Assembly: GCA_028706295.1 (NCBI GenBank)
Contig: JAQWBQ010000009.1
Location: 8,110 to 72,109 of the forward strand
DNA from: Bacteroidales bacterium
GTDB taxonomy: Bacteria > Bacteroidota > Bacteroidia > Bacteroidales > FEN-979
Length of the DNA: 64,000 nt
Direction: 5' to 3'
In this document: one piece after another, positions 7,283 to 42,289 of the stretch
Layout of the letters: each line of letters starts with the position of its first letter
How positions within the stretch are numbered: the first letter of the stretch is position 1
Position numbers and translations under genes: made by a program
Notes under the pieces: generated by a model
Databases searched by the model: none
The model's input: only the letters and a program-made list of their open reading frames with translations
What the model was told of the DNA's origin: nothing

Positions 7283-8704
7283 TCATTTCTTCTTTTCCTG
7301 AAGCTTCTTGTCGTAATTGATGATGAATTGCTCCAATTGATCCCCAAGCAAACGTTTGGCTATGATCTCCTTCTGCTCATTCAGAACATATACCACAGGC
7401 GTTGAGAAAATATCGTACTGATCGTGGTAGTTTCCCGTCAGCGTTCTCGGCCCGTTGACATTGATCCAGGTCATATTTTTTTTCTTTATCCCCGCTTTCA
7501 TTTTAACCATTGACGTGTCGGAACAAACAGAAAAGATCTCCAGTCCGTACTTTGATTTGTCCCTCAAATAAAATTCCCGGATCTTCGGAACCTCAACCTC
7601 ACAATGACTGCATTCCGGATCCCAGAATAACAGAATTAAATACCGTGCTTTGATACTATGCATCGAGACCAGGTTAAAACTGGTGTCCTGCATGATCATG
7701 TTGGGCGCTTTATTGCCAATGAGAATCGGTCGTAACTTATTGGCTTTCTTTATGATGGATTCATTTACGCTTTTTGCTATCCAGGGGGTCTGACCCGTGG
7801 CATAATAGGTATCGACGATGTTGACAAAGATCCGGTCAAAGCCCATGATCTCTGAGCTTTCGTAATGATAGGTTGTAAACCAGATCAGGTATTTGAACAC
7901 CTCTTCATTGGGGCGGGCCCGCTCGGCGAGTTGGTTGATCGCCTTCATAATGGTATCGGGGGTCTGTATGATGACATTATCGAGGTATTTCTTTAATTTG
8001 TTGTAGAAAACAGGGGTCCTGAGAATCCGGTCATCCGCAAGGTTTACACCATCCCAGTATTCCGCAACATAAGTCCTATAGGAGTAGGTGGAGTCTTTTT
8101 TTCCGTTGGGCAAGGTGGGATTCTCCTTAATATCCGGCTCCTTCATCACCTTAAGCATCAAAGTGAGAAAACTTTCAGGATGCTCCTTTATGATCCGGTA
8201 CTTATAATCGATCAAGGCTTTATTGATTACCTGTATCTGATCGTTAAGCGCCTTTGCAGTATCACTATTTTCACCCGACGCTTTGATGCGGTCCTGCAAC
8301 TCCTGCGCTTTTTTAAATTGTATCTTGTTGTAATCCAGATATTGATAAAACAATTTATTTTCAGGTGAATCTTTGATGACCATTTTACCGGTAAGATCGG
8401 TTACATCCGTTTCCATCGAAAACCTGCGATCATTGTTGATGATGAAATCACAATAATTCTTTTCCGACACGATCAGAATGTACATGCCACCGGGCAGATC
8501 CTTGGATTTCAACGTACAGCGACCGGATCCATCCACTTTAAGCGTATCTTTAATATAGGTATTGTTACCGTAATAGTTGCCGATCATACAGACGGTGTCT
8601 TTGAGTCCGTGGATCTGAATCCGGATAAGAGTTTCGTTCTGGGTGTATCCGGTAATACCCAACAAGAACAAAAAAATGGTCAGAGAGGTAATTTTCACTC
8701 GCAT
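7283..8704 (-). CDS. Periplasmic TlpA/redoxin-domain protein (DUF4369/DUF5106-like N-terminus)
   Basis: Signal peptide GYT|QN; C-terminal thioredoxin fold with GNKAPN...LFWDPECSHC and STPVVYVLN..IIAKRL. Confidence 0.8.
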   Translation of the reverse strand: MRVKITSLTIFLFLLGITGYTQNETLIRIQIHGLKDTVCMIGNYYGNNTYIKDTLKVDGSGRCTLKSKDLPGGMYILIVSEKNYCDFIINNDRRFSMETDVTDLTGKMVIKDSPENKLFYQYLDYNKIQFKKAQELQDRIKASGENSDTAKALNDQIQVINKALIDYKYRIIKEHPESFLTLMLKVMKEPDIKENPTLPNGKKDSTYSYRTYVAEYWDGVNLADDRILRTPVFYNKLKKYLDNVIIQTPDTIMKAINQLAERARPNEEVFKYLIWFTTYHYESSEIMGFDRIFVNIVDTYYATGQTPWIAKSVNESIIKKANKLRPILIGNKAPNMIMQDTSFNLVSMHSIKARYLILLFWDPECSHCEVEVPKIREFYLRDKSKYGLEIFSVCSDTSMVKMKAGIKKKNMTWINVNGPRTLTGNYHDQYDIFSTPVVYVLNEQKEIIAKRLLGDQLEQFIINYDKKLQEKKK

Positions 8705-20805: not shown

Positions 20806-22158
20806 TCAGGCATTCTGATCCCAATCAAGATTATCGAGGATTGCCAATAGATCACTCGGGCGGTAAGGTTTTGCAAGGTATTCGTCCATTCCTGCAGCGA
20901 GGCATCTTTCGCGGTCGGTCATCATGACATGGGCGGTCACTGCCACAATTTTTATTTTCCTAACCCCACGTTCCAGATTCCGGATTATGCGGGTAGCTTC
21001 AATCCCGTCCATGATGGGCATCGCGATATCCATCAGAATCAGATCGTATGGGCGTTCTTTGTATAAATCGACGGCAACTTTCCCGTTCTCAGCGAGTTCA
21101 ACATGATGGCCAGCCCGTTTCAGACTGGTCATCGCGAACTTTTGATTAAGCAGGTTATCCTCAACCAATAGGATTCGGAGTGGTCCGAGTTTTTTCCGGG
21201 GAGTCGGGATCCCGTTACCGATTTTCCGGATCACCGCTTCATCTCCGACCTCAAATCCGAGGGTGAACCAGAATGTGGAACCTTGTCCCTGTGTACTTCT
21301 TACCCCGATTTTGCCCTTCATAAGAGTAGTCAGATTCTTTGAAATGGATAGCCCCAGTCCGGTACCTTCGTACCGTTTCATTAATGGATTTTCGAGTTGG
21401 GCGAATTCATTGAACAGGTTTTCCTGTTCTTCCGGCGGAATCCCAATCCCGGTATCTGTGATCTCAAATTTGAGGATGACTTTATTCCCGACATTTGTCG
21501 GTGCATTCAGAAATTCATCCGGGAGGAACATCTGCAATGCTGGATCAGGATGAGAATTCATTTCGATCGTTTCGACGGAAACCTCGACATGGCCACGGTT
21601 TGTAAACTTTATGGCATTATTGGTCAGGTTGATCAGTATTTGCTTTAGTCGCACAGGATCTCCGAGGAGGCATTTCGGGACCGAGGATTGGATTTTAGAG
21701 AAGAGATCGATTTTTTTCCCTTTAGCTTTGATAGATAACAACTTGATGACCTGTTGAATTTCTTCATGGGGATAAAACGGTTTATAATCCAGTTTTAACT
21801 GTCCGGCTTCAATTTTTGAAAGGTCAAGGATATCGTTGATAATGGTCAGAAGATTGACACTCGAAATATTGATAATTTCCAGGAACTCCCTTTGTTCGTC
21901 TGTCAGAACGGTCTGGCTCAGAACATTGTACATGCCGATTATGCTATTCATAGGGGTCCTGATCTCATGACTCATGTTTGCAAGAAACATCGACTTCGAA
22001 CGATTGGCATCTTCGGCATCCTGGCGTGCTTTGATCAGCTCCTGGCTTATTTTCTGATGGTCTTCCAGTTCTTCCCGGTCCTTTGCTGATTTTTCAATGA
22101 TCACTTCAAGTTCGGCGATTCGTTTTTCGAGCTCTTTTATTCTGCTTTCAGCGTCCAT
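20806..22158 (-). CDS. Cytoplasmic hybrid histidine kinase (coiled coil-HisKA-HATPase-REC)
   Basis: [58 protein letters not shown]. No TM helix. Confidence 0.93.
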
Positions 22159-22159
22159 T

Positions 22160-23572
22160 CTATAGTTTATTCAATTGGTTCTTCATGATTGAATACAGCT
22201 CCTGTTGATTGATGGGTTTCGAAATATAATCATCAAAGCCCGCTTCAAGCAGTTTCTCCTTATCACCTGTCATGGCATAGGCAGTTTGGGCGACAAAGGG
22301 AACTGTCTTGTACGCTTTGATTTTTTTTCTTACTTCATGCATCAGTTTGATTCCATCCCAGGGTGGGGGAAGGTTGATGTCGAACAACATGATGTCGAAA
22401 ACCTTTCCGGCTTTATATTCCTCTTCAATGACTTTCAGCGCCTCATCTCCATCCATAGTTGTGATTACATTGCCCAATGACTTGGTCATTTCAAAAAGGA
22501 CAATTTTGTTCATAAGGTCATCTTCCACAATAAAAATTTCAAGCCCTTGTAAAGTCTTAAACTTTTCTTTCTTTGTGGGTTCTTTTCGGGGTTGAATCTC
22601 GTCTGTAGTTTTTTCAGGTGGGAAGAAGATAGTCACGGTGGTGCCCATCCCTTTGGCAGATTCAATTTCGATATGCCCGCGCATCATTTCGACCAGGCTT
22701 TTAGCAAGCGGTAATCCCAATCCTGCACCGCTGTTCTCCTTTGTATATCCCAGGCTATCCTGCCTGAAGGGGTCGAAAATTCCCGGCAGATAGGTGGGAT
22801 CTATTCCAATCCCGGTATCCTTGATCCGGATACAGATTTCACCCTTGTCGGTCTGAAAATCGGTCGAAACATTGATAAATCCGTTGGGGGTGTACTTCAC
22901 AGCATTTTCAAGAACGATACTCAGAACTTTATTCAGCCCCTTCTCATCAATGAAAGCAGCCGGTACCTCATTGATCTTGAGATTCAACTTCAGCTTTTGC
23001 TCGTTGGCTTTGAAAATAAACATTTGTGTTGTGTCGGCAACCACATTGTTGAGCTGACATGACTTCAACTTTATTTGCATGTCATTTGCCTCTAACTTGC
23101 TAATATCTAATATGTTATCAAGCAAGTGAGAAAGCTTGTCCCCGCTTTCGGAGATAGCCCTGGCATAATCAAACAACTCTTTATTTTCGAGAAGGGATAT
23201 TTCAGCTTCGAGCAGGCTTGCAAACCCGATAATATTGTTCAGGGGAGTCCGGATCTCATGGCTAAAGTTCGATAAGAAGGCATTCTTCATGAAGTTGGCC
23301 TCTTCAGAACGTTTTAGTGCTCTTTTCAGGGTAAAGTCAGACTTTTCCGGATCGCCTTCTTCTTTTTTCAGTTCTGTTATCTTGTCTTTGATAATCTGAT
23401 CGACTGATTCTTTGGTCTCGGCCAAATCGGCGCTCAGTTTTTTCAAGGCTTGATCTTTTTTCAGTGATTCAGCCCTTAGGCTTTTCAATTTTCCCGAAAG
23501 GAGGATCACAGTCATGATGAGCGCCAATAAAACCAGGCAGGCTATGTAGAACAGCACACTATACAGATTCAT
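22160..23572 (-). CDS. Membrane-anchored hybrid histidine kinase (TM-coiled coil-HisKA-HATPase-REC)
   Basis: One N-terminal TM; [32 protein letters not shown]; [23 protein letters not shown]. Confidence 0.92.
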
Positions 23573-24395: not shown

Positions 24396-26087
24396 TTATT
24401 TGTGATTTATTAAAATGATTTTTCTAACGATCGATTGCTCCAGGGTTTTCAACAGGAGCGAATATACTCCCGCTTGAAACTGTTCTGTTTCCAGTTGTAT
24501 CTTTACGGGACCCGGTCCGGAACCGGGATATTGTTTATTGAAAACGATCCTGCCATTAGCGTCCAGAAGGGTCAATTTCAGATTTGATAAGCGTTCCAGC
24601 GTTACAGAGATATTGATTTTATCTATTGCCGGATTTGGAGATATGGAAACCGTCAGGATGGGTTTATAATGGTCAGGCAGCGCGAGCAGCGCAGAATCCT
24701 GACATTCGAATGCGCCGATATCATAAAGTTTGGCAAACGGCCGGATCCGGTTATGGATGTCGTAAGAAATTTCGAAGCCGGCGATGGTGGCGGCGGTATT
24801 GACAGCCTGGGAGGTCCGGGTCAGGTCAAAATTGCCCTGGGCCGGATCGACAAATCCCACGGTACTGATATCAAGTGATTTAATGTTCTGGACCATACTG
24901 ACCGGGGTTGAGGAAGATCCGATGTAAATGTACGACCGTTCACCCTCAGTTCCGTATGACCCCGGATTGATTAAAATATTATTTGAGATATGATTGTTCG
25001 AGCTTAGATTGTCTTCAAACCTTACACCGTAACTTTTGGGATCGATCACGGTATTGTAAGCAAGGAGGTAGCTGTTTGATGCTGAAGTGAATGTTGAACC
25101 GACAAAAAAGCCGTATTTTAAATAGGGTGCAACGTTTTGTTGGGGTTTATAGGTTCTTCCGGGATTTATGATCAGGTTATTGAAAATCCTTTGGTCCCCA
25201 AGTGAGATGATATCGATTCCATCGCCTTTCCCGTCGCGGATGTCGTTATTGTAACAGGAAGCCTGAGTTCCTCCGCCTAACAGGATCCCTGACATCTGGT
25301 ACATAACTTCAAGTTGGCTGTCATGGAGTATGACATTATCGTGGACGGCGCAGGCAGAGTCGGCGGAACTTACCTGTATCGCATCCCACCCGGTTCCGGA
25401 AACAAAATTTCTGTAAACTTCGACACCCTTTAACAAATGAGGCAGTACAGTTGTATCCTTTTCGTTGCAGGTTATGGTCTGACCCGCATATTTTGAACTG
25501 CCGATATACATTCCTTCCATCCCGGTATCGAAGATAAAGCAATTGTGGATTTTCAAATTTCTGAGGACGAATTTTTCGCGGGTGGATTTGAACTGGCAAT
25601 CGGGTTCCGTTTTTGCAAAAATTCCAACCAGGCCTGTTTTTCCTATTTCAAGGTACTCTAATTCGACATCGGTCGATAGTCCGTCGACCGATAATCCTGC
25701 ACCCACAGTATTGTTAATCTTTATTCCATACACCGAAGCCGGATCCCCGTTCCCTGAGAGTTTTACGTAAGAACAGGAATCGAATTTAATTCCATAATTG
25801 ACACAATTTAAAATAGAGACCACACCACCGCTGTTCAAAATAACAATGGGATTATTTCGTGAGCCATGAAGGAAAGAGAGCAGTAACATGGTCCGGTTTC
25901 CTTTCAACAGGCAGATGGTATCGCCAGGCAAAACTCCTGAGGCATTGGAGCGTCCATCAATCATTGTTACCGTGGAGTCAAAGCTGATTTTACATCCGTT
26001 TGCCTGTTTCCATCCGGTTAAACTTTGCATTCCGGTGATCAGCGACAGAAAAACTATCAGCTTATTTCTGAGGGATTTTTTTAACAT
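24396..26087 (-). CDS. T9SS cargo with right-handed parallel beta-helix (pectin-lyase-like) and type A CTD
   Basis: Asn-ladder repeats (IHNC, VYRN, VHDN, CYNN, IFNNLIIN), RPFAKLYDIGAFE anchor-like motif, CTD ISPNPA...GVYSLLL..RKII. Confidence 0.8.
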   Translation of the reverse strand: MLKKSLRNKLIVFLSLITGMQSLTGWKQANGCKISFDSTVTMIDGRSNASGVLPGDTICLLKGNRTMLLLSFLHGSRNNPIVILNSGGVVSILNCVNYGIKFDSCSYVKLSGNGDPASVYGIKINNTVGAGLSVDGLSTDVELEYLEIGKTGLVGIFAKTEPDCQFKSTREKFVLRNLKIHNCFIFDTGMEGMYIGSSKYAGQTITCNEKDTTVLPHLLKGVEVYRNFVSGTGWDAIQVSSADSACAVHDNVILHDSQLEVMYQMSGILLGGGTQASCYNNDIRDGKGDGIDIISLGDQRIFNNLIINPGRTYKPQQNVAPYLKYGFFVGSTFTSASNSYLLAYNTVIDPKSYGVRFEDNLSSNNHISNNILINPGSYGTEGERSYIYIGSSSTPVSMVQNIKSLDISTVGFVDPAQGNFDLTRTSQAVNTAATIAGFEISYDIHNRIRPFAKLYDIGAFECQDSALLALPDHYKPILTVSISPNPAIDKINISVTLERLSNLKLTLLDANGRIVFNKQYPGSGPGPVKIQLETEQFQAGVYSLLLKTLEQSIVRKIILINHK

Positions 26088-34207: not shown

Positions 34208-35680
34208 TTATGATATTGTATTTGATTTTTGTTCAAGAATCATCTGATCGAGGCCGGGGGCAAGGAATACATAGGCCATACTGGCATAAATCAACAAACC
34301 GGTCGGGAACTGGCCAAGAACCGCGTTGCCGTAACTTGCAACCATGATACCGAAGATTCCGCACAACAGCGCACTTATTTTGACCAGGAGTTCGGGATCT
34401 CTGATTTTGACCATACAGATATAACATCCCTTTCCGATGATATAGCCTAGAATAAACAGGTGAAGGTACAGTCCGATAATTCCGCATTCGGCCCAAATCA
34501 ACACGAACCAGCTATCGGTCGCGACACTTGATAGGAACGTTCCAGGGGTGTAAGCCTGGGCACGGTCGCCTGCATGGCCGATGCCTCCTCCGAAAGGCCT
34601 GGTTTTCAGATATTCCTGAAAGAGCCGTTGGTTTTTTATACGCACAAGGTATGACGCGTCCTGTTCCGGAACGAAGGCGGTTCGCATCCGGTAAATCTGG
34701 TAGTTGCTGTTACCCAGGGTTGTGAACCGCATGAAAGAATAGAATATGATCATAACAACGGTTCCAATCAGGATGACCTTAAAATTCTTACGCAGGATTA
34801 TGTACAGCGCCAGTCCTCCCATGGGAACAAAAATAGCTCCCCGGGTTCCAGAGGCCGACATCCCGTAGAAGCCTGTTATCATCACAGCAATCCAGAACAA
34901 TCTCTTTTTAAAATTCTTTTCACTCATCATCATGATGGCGCCGATGAGTCCGATCTGTCCCTGAGCCGCCCCGAATTGCCCGGCGTCGGTGTAAAACGAA
35001 AAAGCCCGCAGGTTGCCCCAGATTATATGTGTAATACCTCCAACTTCATCCAGCCACCGCTGTTCCCATGGATCCACTCCGATATTTAACTGGATCCATC
35101 CTTTAATTCCGGCGAGTATCGAAAATACGCCCCAGATGGTCAAAAATTTATCGAGGTGCTTCGGAGAATTGTATAGTAAATAGACCAGCGGGATGGTCAG
35201 GATCATGTAGAATGCGATTCCCCGGAATGCCGAAAACCAGGCTGTTTTACTGATGGCCTCAGGGTTAAAAAATTCCAGGCAGATATATAGGAACCAGATC
35301 AGCGACAGGATTATCAGATCGGATTTCAGGGAAGTGATGTTAAGTTTTTTATCAAAATAGTGAAAAAATATGGCCACATAGATAACGATCTCAGTAATAT
35401 CCATCAAATATCCCATCTTGATCGGGACATAGCGCTGAACGCCCATTAAAAGGAAATTGATGATAAATGCAAAGGTCAGTCCGATTTCGGGTTTTGCGAT
35501 AACCCGGTTAAGGGCATAAACGATAACGGGAAGGGCCATCAGGGCAGATGCGATGGTAAATCCGCCGCGGGCAATGACGAAACCGATACCAATGGCCATA
35601 ACAAGGATCGATCCGGCTAAAAACGGATTTTTCAACCGGTCGGCTCCTGTTCTTTCATGAAATGGATTTAACGACTCCAC
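34208..35680 (-). CDS. O-antigen ligase/Wzy polymerase-like membrane protein
   Basis: About 12 TM segments, SGTRGA, periplasmic loop PFGGGIG...DSWFVLIWAECGIIG. Confidence 0.8.
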   Translation of the reverse strand: MESLNPFHERTGADRLKNPFLAGSILVMAIGIGFVIARGGFTIASALMALPVIVYALNRVIAKPEIGLTFAFIINFLLMGVQRYVPIKMGYLMDITEIVIYVAIFFHYFDKKLNITSLKSDLIILSLIWFLYICLEFFNPEAISKTAWFSAFRGIAFYMILTIPLVYLLYNSPKHLDKFLTIWGVFSILAGIKGWIQLNIGVDPWEQRWLDEVGGITHIIWGNLRAFSFYTDAGQFGAAQGQIGLIGAIMMMSEKNFKKRLFWIAVMITGFYGMSASGTRGAIFVPMGGLALYIILRKNFKVILIGTVVMIIFYSFMRFTTLGNSNYQIYRMRTAFVPEQDASYLVRIKNQRLFQEYLKTRPFGGGIGHAGDRAQAYTPGTFLSSVATDSWFVLIWAECGIIGLYLHLFILGYIIGKGCYICMVKIRDPELLVKISALLCGIFGIMVASYGNAVLGQFPTGLLIYASMAYVFLAPGLDQMILEQKSNTIS

Positions 35681-35686
35681 ACCTTG

Positions 35687-37072
35687 CTATGGTTGTTGGT
35701 TAATCCGGAATACCCGAAAAATGTAATTTCTGTAGAAAAAGTATCCTTTCCTGAAAATGTCAATGAAGGAGATTTCGATTTCCTGCCGCAGGAAACGATA
35801 TCCTACGACGATGCCAATAATCGAGAAGATGATGGATGCAATGGCAACAAAAAACAGGATGGTGGTAACTGGCATTTCGGGAAACAGATAATGCATGCCA
35901 AAAACGGCAAAAATATCACCCAGGATATTGGCGGTGGTCATATAGATCACTTTCTGGAAATTTCGCTGGGGTTTATTCAGGCTGTCGAGCGCCACCCCGG
36001 TGAAACGGTCTAACGGCAACAGTACGCAGTAGATAATCATGGCAATCATGACATAGGAGAGGGGAGTAAGGAGCTCGCGATACTGGTTACCGCCGATAAA
36101 CAGGATGAATAACTTGTTAAATATCAAACTGACAAGTGCGATGGCAATGAACAGGTAAGCAACAATTCCGGTGTAGGAATAGTAGATGTCTTTAAAACGC
36201 TGCATGTTGTTATTGAGGCTCTCTTTCGACAACTTTGGAAAGGCGGTGGTCGCAAAGCTGATCAGTGGAATTTCGATTAGTTCCACATATTTGAGCGGTA
36301 TGGCATACATCGCGACACCGGCAGGGCCGCAATAGGCGCTGAAGGAGATGATGAAACTGTCGGCACCTTTGAGAAGACTGCTGCCGACCTTGGTCCCCAT
36401 CGAGAACTGGCCGTATCGCAATACTTCCTTCATTTTAACTTTGGTAAAGTAGCGAAGGTACTCCAGGCCCGTCCACTTACGTATAATGCAAAAGAGGGAG
36501 GTTGCCAGGTTGGTCAGAAGATAAATCATAACAACCACGGTAATAGTGATATCGGTGAGCAGGTATGCGATAAAAATGATGACCAGGAAGGAACAAAGGT
36601 TGAAAAATCTGATCCAGAATATCTTACCAAATTGAAGTTCAGCCTGGAAGATGGTCCAGGCATAGTTCCATGGCAGGTTAATCAGGGCAAGAACGGGGTA
36701 CCAGTAACAGAAAACATCATAACCACTGCTTTCCAGAGTTCCCGGAATGATCAGCGTCAGGGCCCAAAGGATTGCTGTAATCGGTATAAGGATCAGAAAA
36801 CCGATGATCCAGCTTGATCCCAGGTAGTATTTGCGGTCTTCGGGCGTGGGTGAGGAGAGAAACCGTACCAGGGCTTCTTTACTAAGTCCGAACCTGAGCA
36901 TGTCGATGAGAGAAGCCGGCGCCGTAAAAAGTACCCATTTCCCGAAATCCGGGATGGAAAGCATTCTCATCAGGATCATGAAGGAAAGCAAACCCATCAC
37001 AGCCGTTGACAGATTGGCTGCTAATGAGAGAAAATTCAGGTCATTAACCAGTTTTAGGAGTCTCGTTTTCAA
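35687..37072 (-). CDS. Wzx-like oligosaccharide flippase
   Basis: Multi-TM PST pattern: RMLSIPDFGKW, IDMLRFGL, GVAMYAIPLKY, TTAFPKLS. Confidence 0.8.
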   Translation of the reverse strand: MKTRLLKLVNDLNFLSLAANLSTAVMGLLSFMILMRMLSIPDFGKWVLFTAPASLIDMLRFGLSKEALVRFLSSPTPEDRKYYLGSSWIIGFLILIPITAILWALTLIIPGTLESSGYDVFCYWYPVLALINLPWNYAWTIFQAELQFGKIFWIRFFNLCSFLVIIFIAYLLTDITITVVVMIYLLTNLATSLFCIIRKWTGLEYLRYFTKVKMKEVLRYGQFSMGTKVGSSLLKGADSFIISFSAYCGPAGVAMYAIPLKYVELIEIPLISFATTAFPKLSKESLNNNMQRFKDIYYSYTGIVAYLFIAIALVSLIFNKLFILFIGGNQYRELLTPLSYVMIAMIIYCVLLPLDRFTGVALDSLNKPQRNFQKVIYMTTANILGDIFAVFGMHYLFPEMPVTTILFFVAIASIIFSIIGIVVGYRFLRQEIEISFIDIFRKGYFFYRNYIFRVFRINQQP

Positions 37073-37074
37073 AA

Positions 37075-39741
37075 CTAAATATTATTCTTTTCACGAAACC
37101 TGAATGTTAAAATCTGTTTGATCGCTCTTCTTAGTTTGGATCTTTGTCTGGGCAATTCACCAAAAACCACATCGAGGTAAATAAGTTCAACACCATTTAA
37201 AACGATTTGCGGGGTCTGCTTGAAAAGTGGTAAAAATGCGTTGAGCGCGCTCTCATCTGCATCTGTCCATGAACGGTTTGCCCGGGTCACGATCAGGCCG
37301 AAATCAAATGCCCGGATCAACTCGAGGGGATAAGAATTGTTGATCAGGGACGGAATTTCAACGAGTACGTAGTCGTAGCCATTCAGATCGAGATGTTCAT
37401 AGCCTACCAGCAGGGAGCTGAGTTCATTTACTTCAAAGAAGTTATCCCGGATTACAAACTGGATTTCATCATCGGTTGGTGGAATCAGCTCGCCGGAAGA
37501 TATATAAGATTGGTTTCCTGATTGTTCTTTTACATAGTTCAGATAAATCACATTTTCGCCGAATGATCTTAGTTTGCGGGTAAGTTCGCGCCCGATGCTG
37601 GTTTTACCTTCTGCATCGCGGGTGCTGAACAATAAGATCATGATGGGTCTCTTGTTGGGCAGGATATTGGAACGGGTCAGGGCAAGTTTGATATTCTGGG
37701 CAAGGATCTCAACGAGTCGGGGCAGAATAAATCCGATATCGACCGAATAGATCTCTTTTCCGATCTGTGGGTAGATACCCGCGACTTTCAGTTTAATAAA
37801 CCGTTCGGCACGTTCGGGGGTTTTGATGGTGGTATCGAAAAATTCAAGGGCCAGCAGGATGGCGGCCATCAGAACAAAGCCTGCAACGGCAGCAATAAGT
37901 ACAAGAAGGAGTGCTTTCGACCGGATCGGATTCAATGGGTAGTAAGGAGCGTCGACCACCTTGAGGTTGGTCGAAAGCTCATCGTCCTGTTGTCGCAATT
38001 TGGCTAAGTTCAAATCGTGAAGCAATTGCAGAAATTCGCTTTCAGTCACGGAAATCAACCGTTCGATGCGTTTCATTTCAGCGCCAAGCGGAGCAAAAAC
38101 CTCATACACCCGCTGAAAATGTTTCTTTCGCTCAGCCAATACCCGCAGGGCGGCCTTGCTCTCTTCATAGGCCACCACATTGGCCAGCCAGGAGTTCAGA
38201 AGGTCCTTTAACGGCAGACCTTCGACGCTGTTGGTGACCAGGTAAAGCCGGTCGATGTTGTTTTTAATTGCGGCTTTAATGTTTTCAACACGCGATTTCA
38301 GCATGGAAAGCTGCTGGATGGTGGCCGAATCATTACCAAGATCGATCTCAATGTTGGCAATTTGCATGGTCGTTTCCGCAAGCTCATTCCTGAGACGGAG
38401 GATGGCGCTCGTGTTGAGTGAAAGTTTCGCGTGTGATTCCAGCTTTTTTTCAATAATTTTAATTGCCGCATCAGAGGAGGCAAAAGCAATTTGTTTATTC
38501 TGAAAAGTCACGTCAAGCTCTTCCTTGGTGATGGCGATCTCCTTGGTCTGCTCGTAGTAGTTGATGATGTTGTTTCGTTCATTAAAGACCAGCAGGTCAT
38601 TTTCTGCTTTCTGAAGCCTGCGGGCTGCATCTTCAAGTTGCCGTCTGAAATACTGAATGACGGCATCCGTCTGGTTTTGCTTTAAAAGCTTATAGTTCCA
38701 GATAAAAACCTTAGTCAGGAAGACCAGGGTCTGCTGGCATATTCCCGGATCAGGGCTCGAGTAAGTCAGCCGGACCAGGTCGCTGTTCTGTACCCGGTAG
38801 ATTCCGACGGTCGAAAGTACTTTTATGCTGTAAAACCGGTCTTCTTCCGAGTTCCACAACTTATAGATAAAGTTATAGTCATTCTGATGGCCGTAGGCCA
38901 GCAAGCGTCTTACAATCCGGTCAAAGGCAGAAGAATCCTGAACGCCTCTCGTTATGGATATCAGGGTATCGGAGGTTGAGAAGTAATCGCGGATTCGGGA
39001 GTTTGAATCGCCGTAAGAGGCCGGGGAGGGTTCGGGTTCATACCCCTGCTCCGGTACCGGTGAAGCTTCGGGTACATCAGCAACAACGGAAACCTGCAGC
39101 TTTTGACCGACCGAAAGGGTATTCCCGGCAAGGTCGTTGATTGATTTTAGGTCGTCGACACTCAGTCCGTTCGAGTGGGCAATTGAATACATGGTTTCAC
39201 CCCGTTTGACGACATGAAATTTGCCGGTGGAAGCGCTCGGGGATTTTACATTGCCGTATTGGGCCTGTCCGCTATTATAATCATTTTCGAAAAGTGCGGT
39301 ATCAAGTTGTGAAGTCCGCCTGGATGGGGCTTTGTAATAACGTTTATCGCTCCTTTTGGCTTTTCTCACGATGTCGAGCACATCGGGCGGGACTTTGGAA
39401 AGGATGTCGTCGTAGTTTTCTTTGGAGATGTAACGGGGGTCGTAATGGTCGAGAAGGAGATGTTGTGCAAGGAGGCTTACGGAAACTTCTTCAAGGGTTT
39501 GACGTGATTTGATAAGGTTGATCAGGTTGTCGAAAGAGGCCATGGTGGCCATCATATCGTAGGAAGTCTGCTGCTGAACAGAATAACCTGAAGTCACGCC
39601 GGTGTATATCGTTGTTTCGGAGTAATAAGACCATTGGCTTTTACGGGTCAGAAAGAAGACCACCGCAGCTATGATCAGCGGCACAAGGATCAGCAGAATG
39701 ATGTGACGCTGTAACAGTTTTATAAAATAAATGATCTTCAT
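37075..39741 (-). CDS. Wzc/GumC-like polysaccharide co-polymerase with inserted LysM and degenerate kinase-like C-domain
   Basis: N-terminal TM, coiled coils, second TM, EFFDTTIKTPERAE, STRDAEGKT. LysM at residues 175-217 (nt 39091-39219). Confidence 0.85.
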   Translation of the reverse strand: MKIIYFIKLLQRHIILLILVPLIIAAVVFFLTRKSQWSYYSETTIYTGVTSGYSVQQQTSYDMMATMASFDNLINLIKSRQTLEEVSVSLLAQHLLLDHYDPRYISKENYDDILSKVPPDVLDIVRKAKRSDKRYYKAPSRRTSQLDTALFENDYNSGQAQYGNVKSPSASTGKFHVVKRGETMYSIAHSNGLSVDDLKSINDLAGNTLSVGQKLQVSVVADVPEASPVPEQGYEPEPSPASYGDSNSRIRDYFSTSDTLISITRGVQDSSAFDRIVRRLLAYGHQNDYNFIYKLWNSEEDRFYSIKVLSTVGIYRVQNSDLVRLTYSSPDPGICQQTLVFLTKVFIWNYKLLKQNQTDAVIQYFRRQLEDAARRLQKAENDLLVFNERNNIINYYEQTKEIAITKEELDVTFQNKQIAFASSDAAIKIIEKKLESHAKLSLNTSAILRLRNELAETTMQIANIEIDLGNDSATIQQLSMLKSRVENIKAAIKNNIDRLYLVTNSVEGLPLKDLLNSWLANVVAYEESKAALRVLAERKKHFQRVYEVFAPLGAEMKRIERLISVTESEFLQLLHDLNLAKLRQQDDELSTNLKVVDAPYYPLNPIRSKALLLVLIAAVAGFVLMAAILLALEFFDTTIKTPERAERFIKLKVAGIYPQIGKEIYSVDIGFILPRLVEILAQNIKLALTRSNILPNKRPIMILLFSTRDAEGKTSIGRELTRKLRSFGENVIYLNYVKEQSGNQSYISSGELIPPTDDEIQFVIRDNFFEVNELSSLLVGYEHLDLNGYDYVLVEIPSLINNSYPLELIRAFDFGLIVTRANRSWTDADESALNAFLPLFKQTPQIVLNGVELIYLDVVFGELPRQRSKLRRAIKQILTFRFREKNNI

Positions 39742-40554: not shown

Positions 40555-41787
40555 TTATACATTTTCTTTTTGAATAAAAACTGCAAACGTCCTAAAAATC
40601 AGGACGATATCACCCCAGAATGAATTGTGTTCTGCATAGTAGTTATCGAGCGCGAATCGTTCCTCCTCCGACATTACTCCTTTTCTGCCTCTTTTCTCGA
40701 CCTGCCACAATCCCGTCAGTCCGGCGGGAGCCCTGAACCGGCGGCTCCATTTTTTCTTGGTAAGGGCTTCGGCTTCATTCAGAGGGAGGGGGCGGTTTCC
40801 CACTATCGACATGTCGCCCTTCATGATGTTGAAAAGCTGGGGCAGCTCATCGATGCTGGTCATCCGGATAAATTTACCCACTTTCGTTATCCTGGGGTCA
40901 TCTTTGATCTTCAGAAAGGCTTTTTTAACGTTCCGTCGTTTGTTGGCCAGTCTTTCGCAAATCTCCTCCCCGTCATAATAAACAACGGGTGAACAGGTCT
41001 GACCCTGGGGTAATTTAGCGCATTCGGAACAACTGTCTTCAACGATATCACTGATGTATTGATTCAGGTGGGCGACGTCTTTGAGCCGTTTGTCAGCATC
41101 GGGGTACATCGACCTGAACTTGTAAAAATCAAAAATGCGGTAATTGGCTCCGACCCTTTTGGAAATATAGTAGACTTTTCCCCTAGACTCCAGAAGTATG
41201 GCGATAACAGTAAGCAACATTATCGGAGAAAGAATAAGCAGTGCAGTCAGGGCGATGGTGATATCAAAAATTCGTTTTGGAAGAGGTGTTTTATAGGGTG
41301 TAATGTCTTCATCCTGAAGCGAAATCGGTTTTGAAACATGTTCCGACTTTAATCTCTTGAGAAAATTGATCCTGCTGTGGATGTTGCTCACATTGATCTC
41401 CTTGTCGTAGTAATCGTCTGCCCCCATATTATAGGCATCCAGTTTCAGACATTTATCACGGAAGAAAGAGATGAGGATATAGGGAGTTTTGGAATATATT
41501 TTTTGTACTTTGATTTTATGGAACAGCGTAAGTCCGTTGATACCGGGAAGATAGTATTCACTTATGATTGCGTCGATCTGCCGGTTTTCGGTGAAGGCTT
41601 TTTCTTCCCTTGCTTCGGTGGTCACATCAAAAAGATGGAAGGTATTTTCGGTCAGCCAGTAAAGCGCGGCAAGGCCATTGGTGAAATGAGTGATATGAAA
41701 AAGTTCACTATTCTGAAACAGGCCAAGATTTACCTGGTCGTTTCCGATATATAATACTTCAAGCCTGTTGGCGGAACCTTCAGCCAT
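40555..41787 (-). CDS. Receiver-domain-fused priming phosphoglycosyl transferase (Bac_transf)
   Basis: REC-like residues 8-145; KRIFDI, FYKFRSM, DDPRITKVG, SIDELPQ, GDMSIVGNRP, PAGLTGLWQV. Confidence 0.9.
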   Translation of the reverse strand: MAEGSANRLEVLYIGNDQVNLGLFQNSELFHITHFTNGLAALYWLTENTFHLFDVTTEAREEKAFTENRQIDAIISEYYLPGINGLTLFHKIKVQKIYSKTPYILISFFRDKCLKLDAYNMGADDYYDKEINVSNIHSRINFLKRLKSEHVSKPISLQDEDITPYKTPLPKRIFDITIALTALLILSPIMLLTVIAILLESRGKVYYISKRVGANYRIFDFYKFRSMYPDADKRLKDVAHLNQYISDIVEDSCSECAKLPQGQTCSPVVYYDGEEICERLANKRRNVKKAFLKIKDDPRITKVGKFIRMTSIDELPQLFNIMKGDMSIVGNRPLPLNEAEALTKKKWSRRFRAPAGLTGLWQVEKRGRKGVMSEEERFALDNYYAEHNSFWGDIVLIFRTFAVFIQKENV

Positions 41788-41792
41788 TTGGT

Positions 41793-42191
41793 TTAGTTTC
41801 CCCTGCGTTGTGTGTATAAATCTCTGAATTCCAACCTTCTTTTGATCCGGGCAATGAGTTCCTTGGGATTAAAGGGTTTCAGCACATAGTCATCAGCGCC
41901 CATTTCAAAACATTTTATTTTATCTGCGCTCTCCTCTTTTCCCGAAAGCATAATCAGGGGAATTTCATCGAAGAAACCGCTTTCCCGGATTCTTTTGATA
42001 AATTCAAATCCATTCAGGACCGGCATCTCGACATCGCAAATGATAAGGTCAGGCAGGTTGCCTGACTGAAGATAAAACAATGCATCCATCCCGTTGCTAA
42101 TGGAAGTTACATCGAAGTCCTTGTTAAACGTGTTTTCGATGATAAACCGGATACTCTTTTCATCATCAATAGCGAGTATCTTTTTTTTCAT
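41793..42191 (-). CDS. Single-domain response regulator
   Basis: ILAIDD, DLIICDVEMP, LSGK, DYVLKPFN, no output domain. Start is ATG 42191. Confidence 0.9.
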   Translation of the reverse strand: MKKKILAIDDEKSIRFIIENTFNKDFDVTSISNGMDALFYLQSGNLPDLIICDVEMPVLNGFEFIKRIRESGFFDEIPLIMLSGKEESADKIKCFEMGADDYVLKPFNPKELIARIKRRLEFRDLYTQRRGN

Positions 42192-42210
42192 GAAATGAGG
42201 ATTTGGTAAG

Positions 42211-42218
42211 CAAATATA
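42211..42218 (-). promoter_or_regulatory. -7 element heading the polysaccharide locus
   Basis: CAAATATA on + equals TATATTTG on -, 19 nt before ATG 42191. Confidence 0.7.
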
Positions 42219-42289
42219 TTTAAATCCATCAGAAATGCAGAAAATAAATATTAACAATAAAATAAAAGTTACTGACTTTTCGGCCGAAT

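Follow-up and report, generated by a model that had tools for sequence, protein, structure and literature searches.

Among the co-polymerases that serve Wzx/Wzy-dependent polysaccharide export, Escherichia coli Wzc (solved structures 7nhr and 9r62-9r6b) comprises two transmembrane (TM) segments around a periplasmic base and long helical arms, a cytoplasmic P-loop domain of the bacterial tyrosine kinase (BY-kinase) fold, and an extra module in a slot of the base domain: this module is a rigid jellyroll (motif 2, residues 110-206; PMC8285477), which according to a 2026 study is needed for capsule production and was proposed to bind GlcNAc/Gal-containing repeat units (PMC12881504). In PslE of Pseudomonas aeruginosa (9v6l, 9v75), a member of the proteobacterial Psl system, the slot is empty and neither a LysM nor a SPOR domain is present. 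A third group, EpsV/EcpK of Myxococcus xanthus and HfsA/HfsB of Caulobacter, consists of co-polymerases of the PCP-2 type (PCP, polysaccharide co-polymerase) with a BY pseudokinase (PMC12004946). The protein analyzed here, P0001, is encoded on a 64,000-nucleotide stretch (hereafter the window: positions 8,110 to 72,109 of contig JAQWBQ010000009.1, assembly GCA_028706295.1) from a Bacteroidales bacterium of the GTDB lineage FEN-979. It shares with Wzc the two TM segments, the base with long helical arms, the cytoplasmic P-loop domain, the Wzx/Wzy gene context and the presence of an extra module in the base domain; in contrast to the jellyroll, this module is a LysM domain hung on disordered tethers (coordinates of all features are listed in Table 1).

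The assignment of the host protein was based on structure prediction, profile comparison and topology. In the AlphaFold2 model of P0001 (built on a 67-sequence alignment; mean predicted local distance difference test score, pLDDT, 75.9), a membrane-proximal alpha/beta base is followed by very long periplasmic helices (residues 332-590), the second TM segment and a Rossmann-like C-terminal domain; the first segment of the base contains a strand at 37-46 and helices at 63-77, 80-96, 107-116 and 119-131 (pLDDT 73-93). The best match of the model in the PDB was Wzc (Foldseek; 9r64_I, E 6e-16; 7nhr_A, E 1.7e-14), with an identity of 12-14% to the full-length Wzc chains in the Foldseek alignments, and the closest solved relative by sequence profile was PslE (9v6l, E 5e-9), the match covering the base strands, the helical arms and TM2: residues 272-610 of P0001 align with residues 157-509 of PslE and with Wzc from residue 229 on. 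The Pfam families Wzz (residues 7-88; 22.3 versus a gathering threshold of 25.5) and GNVR (residues 565-631; 19.5 versus 27.7) were matched below threshold by P0001 itself, and some of its relatives reach or exceed the respective gathering values. P0001 displays the PCP-2a layout of TM1, large periplasmic domain, Pro/Gly-rich motif and TM2, with a proline-rich motif (P599/P602) ahead of TM2 and G621 invariant in the family; the gene context includes a Wzx-like flippase, a Wzy_C polymerase, a priming transferase (Bac_transf) and seven glycosyltransferases of families GT2/GT4 in one operon. Two further PCP-2a features, a fused BY-kinase with Walker A, A' and B motifs and a Tyr cluster and a nearby outer-membrane polysaccharide export partner (OPX; Wza, Poly_export), are not found. 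P0001 is therefore described as a Wzc-type (PCP-2a-like) co-polymerase of a Wzx/Wzy-dependent exopolysaccharide pathway. Hydropathy analysis revealed just two TM segments (residues 14-31 and 611-632), the first being preceded by thirteen residues rich in K/R/H. The P-loop domain that follows TM2 can only be cytoplasmic, which places residues 32-610, and with them the LysM domain, in the periplasm, as had been predicted from the sequence, and a cytoplasmic position of the LysM domain was rejected on the same grounds.

The original prediction of a textbook LysM domain at residues 175-217 (nt 39091-39219, FHVVKRGETMYSIAHSNGLSVDDLKSINDLAGNTLSVGQKLQV) was borne out: the sequence is exact, Pfam LysM (PF01476) matches residues 176-217 with an E value of 3.3e-12 (46.6 bits versus a gathering threshold of 20.9; model positions 1-42 of 43), and the AlphaFold2 model reveals the beta-alpha-alpha-beta fold, with strands at 174-177 and 214-218 and helices at 184-190 and 195-202 (pLDDT 74-86). 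A profile of 67 relatives retrieved solved LysM structures, namely those of LytE (8i2e, 6.6e-24), P60_tth (4uz2) and AtlA (2mkx), and the partial NCBIfam matches over the domain were all LysM modules of the wall enzymes or activators MltD, ActS, DipM and NlpD. In 159 copies from relatives the family consensus reads xYHxVxxGETxxSIAxxYGxSVxxLxxxNxLxxxxxxxGQxLxxx, and the canonical positions (GET, IA, N202, G212-Q, GQ.L) are kept down to 31-40% overall identity. The match is not due to chance because this core is conserved in all these copies while the linkers vary freely: the mean frequency of the top residue in the family alignment is 0.59 for the LysM core versus 0.26-0.33 for the linkers. In one lineage (L059, L060; G417, G670), the slot is occupied by a LysM that has diverged strongly, e.g. 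YYTIKAGDSPNVICEKFGLTLQELRRMNSPMPPFNGGRRLIVG, and that obtained a weak or below-threshold score with the family LysM model.

Alignment against insert-less orthologues placed the insert at residues ~132-271 of P0001 (~140 aa), in good agreement with the ~130-aa insert at 38950-39360 (residues 128-264) delimited beforehand: in the insert-less proteins, the helix equivalent to residues 119-131 is connected by ~18 residues to the helix equivalent to 272-286 (P0001 numbering). On both sides the LysM domain is linked to the base by disordered segments, and in every LysM-bearing relative each side measures at least 24 residues (N-side median 42 aa, range 25-78; C-side median 56 aa, range 24-81). Both linkers had been characterized as Ser/Pro/Glu-rich; this applies to the C-terminal one, whereas the N-terminal one, which is absent from the insert-less orthologues, is of mixed polar/basic composition. 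Proteins with two LysM domains possess an extra charged helical spacer ahead of the first domain, a feature that fits the need to reach a distant layer.

The distribution of the insert was followed at several depths. A word-indexed search with P0001 yielded 256 cluster representatives at 90% identity; among the best 120 of these, 111 were LysM-bearing (94 with one and 17 with two domains), four full-length proteins had none, and the rest were fragments. In an evenly drawn sample of 301 genomes of the order, the family was detected in 67, of which 27 cover the LysM region (~9% of the sample) and 40 are insert-less (~13%), one of the latter belonging to the window genome's own family. At the level of the phylum (401 genomes, evenly drawn), the family occurred in 23 genomes, and all 22 besides the window genome were insert-less. 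From an exhaustive HMMER search of 1.84 billion representatives, 510 proteins were obtained at a cutoff of E <= 1e-30; of the 150 top-ranking ones (representatives at 50% identity), 20 carried LysM (11 with one, 9 with two domains) and 130 did not. In consequence, an insert unique to the window genome (27/301 order genomes carry it) and an insert universal in the family (lacking in 22/22 other phylum-sample positives and in 130/150 representatives) were both rejected: the LysM form accounts for a minority of a larger Bacteroidota family and, although restricted to particular lineages, is recurrent. The orthologue alignment that had been suggested as a check confirmed the insert as lineage-specific inside the larger insert-less family. 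As had been stated for the canonical relatives, the solved Wzc and PslE carry no LysM domain. Whether the architecture is common and already described, which had been named as grounds for refutation, received a divided answer: it is common in uncultured Bacteroidales and bears generic database names only, e.g. "LysM peptidoglycan-binding domain-containing protein", but in literature searches on LysM or SPOR domains in Wzx/Wzy export components no paper describing such an architecture was found. The LysM co-polymerase is thus generically annotated and undescribed in the searched literature.

A maximum-likelihood tree was calculated on the protein core with the insert columns removed. Its basal lineages are insert-less, and LysM presence changes 7-8 times on it, at least 5 changes being forced by well-supported branches; the two-LysM duplication was found across a large clade. 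The LysM-less proteins P0072 and P0080 nest within the clade of P0001 itself, which indicates secondary loss of the domain. A stand-alone LysM gene was not found near the LysM-less loci, neither in the 12 kb downstream nor in the fetched loci with short flanks. A link of the domain to polymer type was rejected in view of the downstream glycosyltransferase orthologues, with which there was no correlation: the orthologue block (GT2b/c, GT4a/b, GT2e and the beta-helix gene) is present in 14/19 LysM-bearing and in 11/17 LysM-less loci. The locus of P0072 (L083, L084), the closest LysM-less sister, has lost not only the insert but also the beta-helix gene and the full set of seven glycosyltransferase genes, and keeps the response regulator, the receiver-fused priming transferase, the TolC-like partner, the co-polymerase, Wzx, Wzy and the methyltransferase; this single case may represent a decaying or re-purposed locus.

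A second wall-binding module was encountered in the same family. Three long LysM-less representatives were first seen to end in a SPOR domain, and a follow-up search extended the group to 13 proteins of 888-927 aa (P0157, P0159, P0172, P0270-P0276, P0279, P0280 and P0282; locus L121:1054-3807). None of them contains LysM; in 13/13, an additional hydrophobic segment (a third TM) follows directly on the conserved C-terminus, SPOR reaches or exceeds the Pfam gathering threshold in 12/13 (up to 43.7 bits), and in these 12 an acidic linker of 50-98 aa connects the third TM to SPOR. As the third helix follows the cytoplasmic domain, SPOR is returned to the periplasm. The gene order of the variant locus (receiver-fused priming transferase, TolC-like partner, SPOR-bearing co-polymerase, Wzx, Wzy, GT2) identifies it as the same system. 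On the core tree the SPOR proteins group together in a single clade (support 100) that is distinct from all LysM clades and has insert-less Flavobacteriaceae "GumC family" proteins as its sister. SPOR domains bind peptidoglycan glycan strands without stem peptides, which are enriched at the septum (PMC6895207), and LysM recognizes GlcNAc-containing glycans, peptidoglycan included (PMC4083421). The independent acquisition of two unrelated wall binders by different topological routes points to peptidoglycan as their common ligand.

Based on these observations, we consider it somewhat probable (roughly 55%) that the LysM domain binds the cell's own peptidoglycan and so fastens or positions the co-polymerase ring and its conduit relative to the sacculus. 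The domain would be suspended from the periplasmic base on flexible tethers of ~42 and ~53 residues and would likely contact the glycan strands of the wall, 42 residues spanning at most ~15 nm if fully extended (own estimate). Provided that P0001 assembles into an octamer like Wzc, eight weak binders, or sixteen in the two-LysM relatives, could act together, and such multivalent binding would hold in place the ring as well as the site at which it joins the half-size TolC-like protein of the outer membrane, whereby the conduit may be stabilized or positioned. In line with such anchoring, the nearest named LysM relatives are modules of periplasmic or cell-wall peptidoglycan enzymes (MltD, ActS, DipM, NlpD, LytE, AtlA). 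The original prediction had left the choice between anchoring on peptidoglycan and binding of the nascent GlcNAc-containing polymer; anchoring is favored above all by SPOR in a sister clade and also by the independence of LysM presence from the glycosyltransferase content of the locus. Two points weigh against it: many orthologues, some with the same glycosyltransferase set, have no wall-binding module, so that the tether is accessory, and the position of the insert in the base-domain slot of the Wzc jellyroll makes glycan capture a credible alternative. According to the latter, LysM captures the GlcNAc-containing repeat unit or nascent chain of its own pathway as a counterpart of the jellyroll. 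Indeed, the insert is flanked on one side by the Wzz-type segment (residues 7-88) and on the other by the strand aligned to Wzc from residue 229 on, i.e. it lies where Wzc has its jellyroll; this equivalence is a bracketing argument, the N-terminal segment of P0001 not aligning with Wzc by sequence. In addition, the jellyroll was reported to bind GlcNAc/Gal glycans (PMC12881504), and LysM binds GlcNAc polymers (PMC4083421). However, capture of the pathway's glycan leaves the SPOR variant, a peptidoglycan binder, unexplained, the occurrence of LysM is independent of the glycosyltransferase set (14/19 versus 11/17), and the long disordered tethers and the helical spacer of the two-LysM form are unlike a rigid, membrane-proximal jellyroll. 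Moreover, nothing in the locus indicates a GlcNAc polymer, and the priming enzyme is WbaP/WcaJ-like rather than WecA-like; we regard glycan capture as rather improbable.

The same affinity for peptidoglycan might also serve spatial targeting instead of static anchoring: LysM and SPOR would then recruit or assemble the exporter at peptide-free or new glycan, for instance at the septum, at new poles or wherever the wall is being remodelled, sites at which a large trans-envelope conduit can be threaded through the sacculus. The preference of SPOR for denuded, septum-enriched glycans (PMC6895207) speaks for this possibility, most of the named LysM relatives (e.g. DipM, NlpD, ActS, MltD) act in division or remodelling, and the convergent gain of LysM and SPOR is as compatible with a preference for bare strands as with plain anchoring. 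LysM by itself, however, does not imply septal localization, a complex with eight to sixteen tethers rather resembles an anchor that works by avidity, and the module is dispensable in many orthologues, so that targeting is held to be unlikely, if conceivable. That the insert plays no part in export and is just a neutral or decaying addition to a permissive surface loop appears very improbable: it was gained or lost at least 5-8 times, the close sisters P0072 and P0080 are without it and the L059/L060 copy is strongly diverged, but the LysM core (GET, IA, N, GQ.L) is kept in 159 copies with linkers free to vary, the domain was duplicated in a large clade, and SPOR was acquired convergently. A wider and doubtful extension of wall binding regards peptidoglycan as a third structural partner of the export machine, at whose bare strands, e.g. 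at septa, the convergent LysM and SPOR modules might dock or assemble the ring.

The cytoplasmic domain of P0001 deviates from that of Wzc, with which it shares the fold: it is devoid of both the Walker A' DxD and the C-terminal Tyr cluster. A Walker A-like motif (TRDAEGKT, 707-714) contains the invariant G712/K713 and the nearly invariant T714 of the family, N735-Y736 stands in place of the Walker A' motif, the Walker B Asp is replaced by E795 (P797 is also noted), and the last 30 residues contain zero Tyr. Foldseek matched the domain with the kinase domains of Wzc, Etk and CapB (3la6, 3cio, CapAB; TMt ~0.55), and the family profile of 67 relatives also matched MinD; a PDB search with the single C-terminal domain sequence gave no meaningful match, the link to MinD and the BY-kinases coming from the profile and fold searches only. 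Its motifs make it probable that the domain represents a BY pseudokinase or simple ATPase and not an autokinase, and nucleotide binding may persist given the retained Walker A GKT and acidic Walker B residue. A kinase-fold domain without catalytic motifs or Tyr tail, together with control by other means, is likewise characteristic of EpsV/EcpK and HfsA/HfsB; in those systems, a protein of its own forms the pseudokinase and wall-binding modules are lacking, whereas in P0001 the domain is fused and keeps the Walker A GKT and the acidic Walker B residue. Some relatives (P0100, L078, P0126, P0129) contain an insertion of ~40-90 aa within the P-loop domain.

The co-polymerase gene is part of a minus-strand operon that begins with a response regulator, a receiver-fused priming phosphoglycosyl transferase and a half-size TolC-like (OEP) gene and continues after the co-polymerase with Wzx, Wzy, seven GT2/GT4 genes, a beta-helix protein with a type IX secretion system (T9SS) sorting domain, a methyltransferase and two hybrid histidine kinases. 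The order uvrB, response regulator, receiver-fused transferase, OEP, co-polymerase, Wzx, Wzy is kept in 23 related loci, down to 36-38% identity. Instead of the Wza partner of Wzc, the half-size TolC-like protein adjoins the co-polymerase, with a TAATG junction of its stop and the co-polymerase start (translational coupling): a gene of this kind (250-270 aa) lies directly upstream of the co-polymerase in nearly all fetched loci, whether LysM-bearing, LysM-less or SPOR-bearing (L001-L023, L025, L032, L035-L082, L121), and the pairing is retained in nearly all LysM-less loci including those of other orders and classes. The exceptions are L024, a contig-end fragment, and L033/L034, where tblastn detected none. 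A Wza-type gene was not found in the locus; the two Poly_export genes of the genome are situated on other contigs. Signalling genes frame the operon, with the response regulator and the receiver-fused transferase at its 5' end (40555-42257, minus strand) and two soluble hybrid histidine kinases at its 3' end (20806-23572 of the window, minus strand), which suggests phosphorelay control in place of tyrosine phosphorylation. The right-handed beta-helix protein with the C-terminal T9SS sorting domain (24396-26087, minus strand), conserved in the glycosyltransferase block of LysM-bearing and LysM-less loci, is a candidate for a secreted enzyme, a lyase or hydrolase, acting on the polymer of the operon. 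Contig SACF01000050.1 (L001, 29.5 kb), labelled 'MAG: Alphaproteobacteria bacterium INTA.CYC.164', has 97-99% protein identity across the whole operon and may be a mis-binned Bacteroidota contig.

Table 1. Features of the co-polymerase P0001 and of its operon neighbors (coordinates refer to the window; residues to P0001).
Feature	Position (nt)	Strand	Basis or remark
Co-polymerase gene P0001	37075..39741	-	888-aa Wzc-like polysaccharide co-polymerase with LysM insert
TM1, residues 14-31	39649..39702	-	Hydropathy peak 3.21; inside Pfam Wzz match 7-88
Periplasmic base domain, first segment, membrane-proximal, residues 32-131	39349..39648	-	AlphaFold2; conserved in all relatives
N-terminal disordered tether, residues 132-173	39223..39348	-	AlphaFold2 pLDDT ~30 (stretch 135-172); low conservation
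LysM domain, residues 174-218 (Pfam match 176-217)	39088..39222	-	Pfam, AlphaFold2, family consensus
C-terminal Pro/Glu/Ser-rich disordered tether, residues 219-271	38929..39087	-	AlphaFold2 pLDDT about 30-33 (stretch 220-269)
Second base segment and long helical periplasmic arms, residues 272-610	37912..38928	-	AlphaFold2 strands 313-329, helices 332-590
TM2, residues 611-632	37846..37911	-	Hydropathy peak 3.04; aligned with TM2 of PslE and Wzc
Divergent cytoplasmic P-loop (BY-kinase-like) domain, residues 633-888	37078..37845	-	Motifs, fold matches
TolC-like (OEP) half-size partner, 262 aa	39741..40529	-	Pfam OEP E 4.8e-12; stop overlaps co-polymerase start
Receiver-fused priming phosphoglycosyl transferase	40555-41787	-	Pfam; conserved synteny
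Stand-alone response regulator	41793-42257	-	Pfam; conserved synteny
Wzx-like flippase, downstream	35687-37072	-	Pfam Polysacc_synt; conserved synteny
Wzy-like polymerase, downstream	34208-35680	-	Pfam Wzy_C; conserved synteny

Wall-binding domains are a familiar element of other envelope machines: TsaP carries LysM at the type IV pilus secretin, MotB and TagL of the type VI secretion system carry OmpA-like domains, and FtsN, DamX and RlpA carry SPOR. Each of these membrane machines is fixed at or targeted to the sacculus by a small domain that binds the wall and is borne on a flexible linker, as is proposed here for LysM; to our knowledge, none of these machines is a polysaccharide co-polymerase. 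How Wzx/Wzy export machines cross or register with the peptidoglycan is not well understood, and the solved Wza-Wzc complexes are without a wall-binding element. The repeated gain, in one co-polymerase family, of wall binders of two unrelated folds by two topological routes speaks, on comparative grounds, for a benefit of sacculus contact to these machines. The base-domain loop emerges as a hot spot for carbohydrate-binding modules, with the jellyroll in Wzc and LysM in the P0001 family; in PslE it is as empty as in the insert-less family members. Because insert-less orthologues exist in cultured Flavobacteriaceae, where they are listed as "GumC family" proteins (e.g. in Muricauda and Maribacter strains), genetics of the system is feasible. 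If peptidoglycan does act as a third structural partner, the assembly or placement of the conduit would be coupled to remodelling of the wall, and no Wzx/Wzy pathway has been described as working on this principle.

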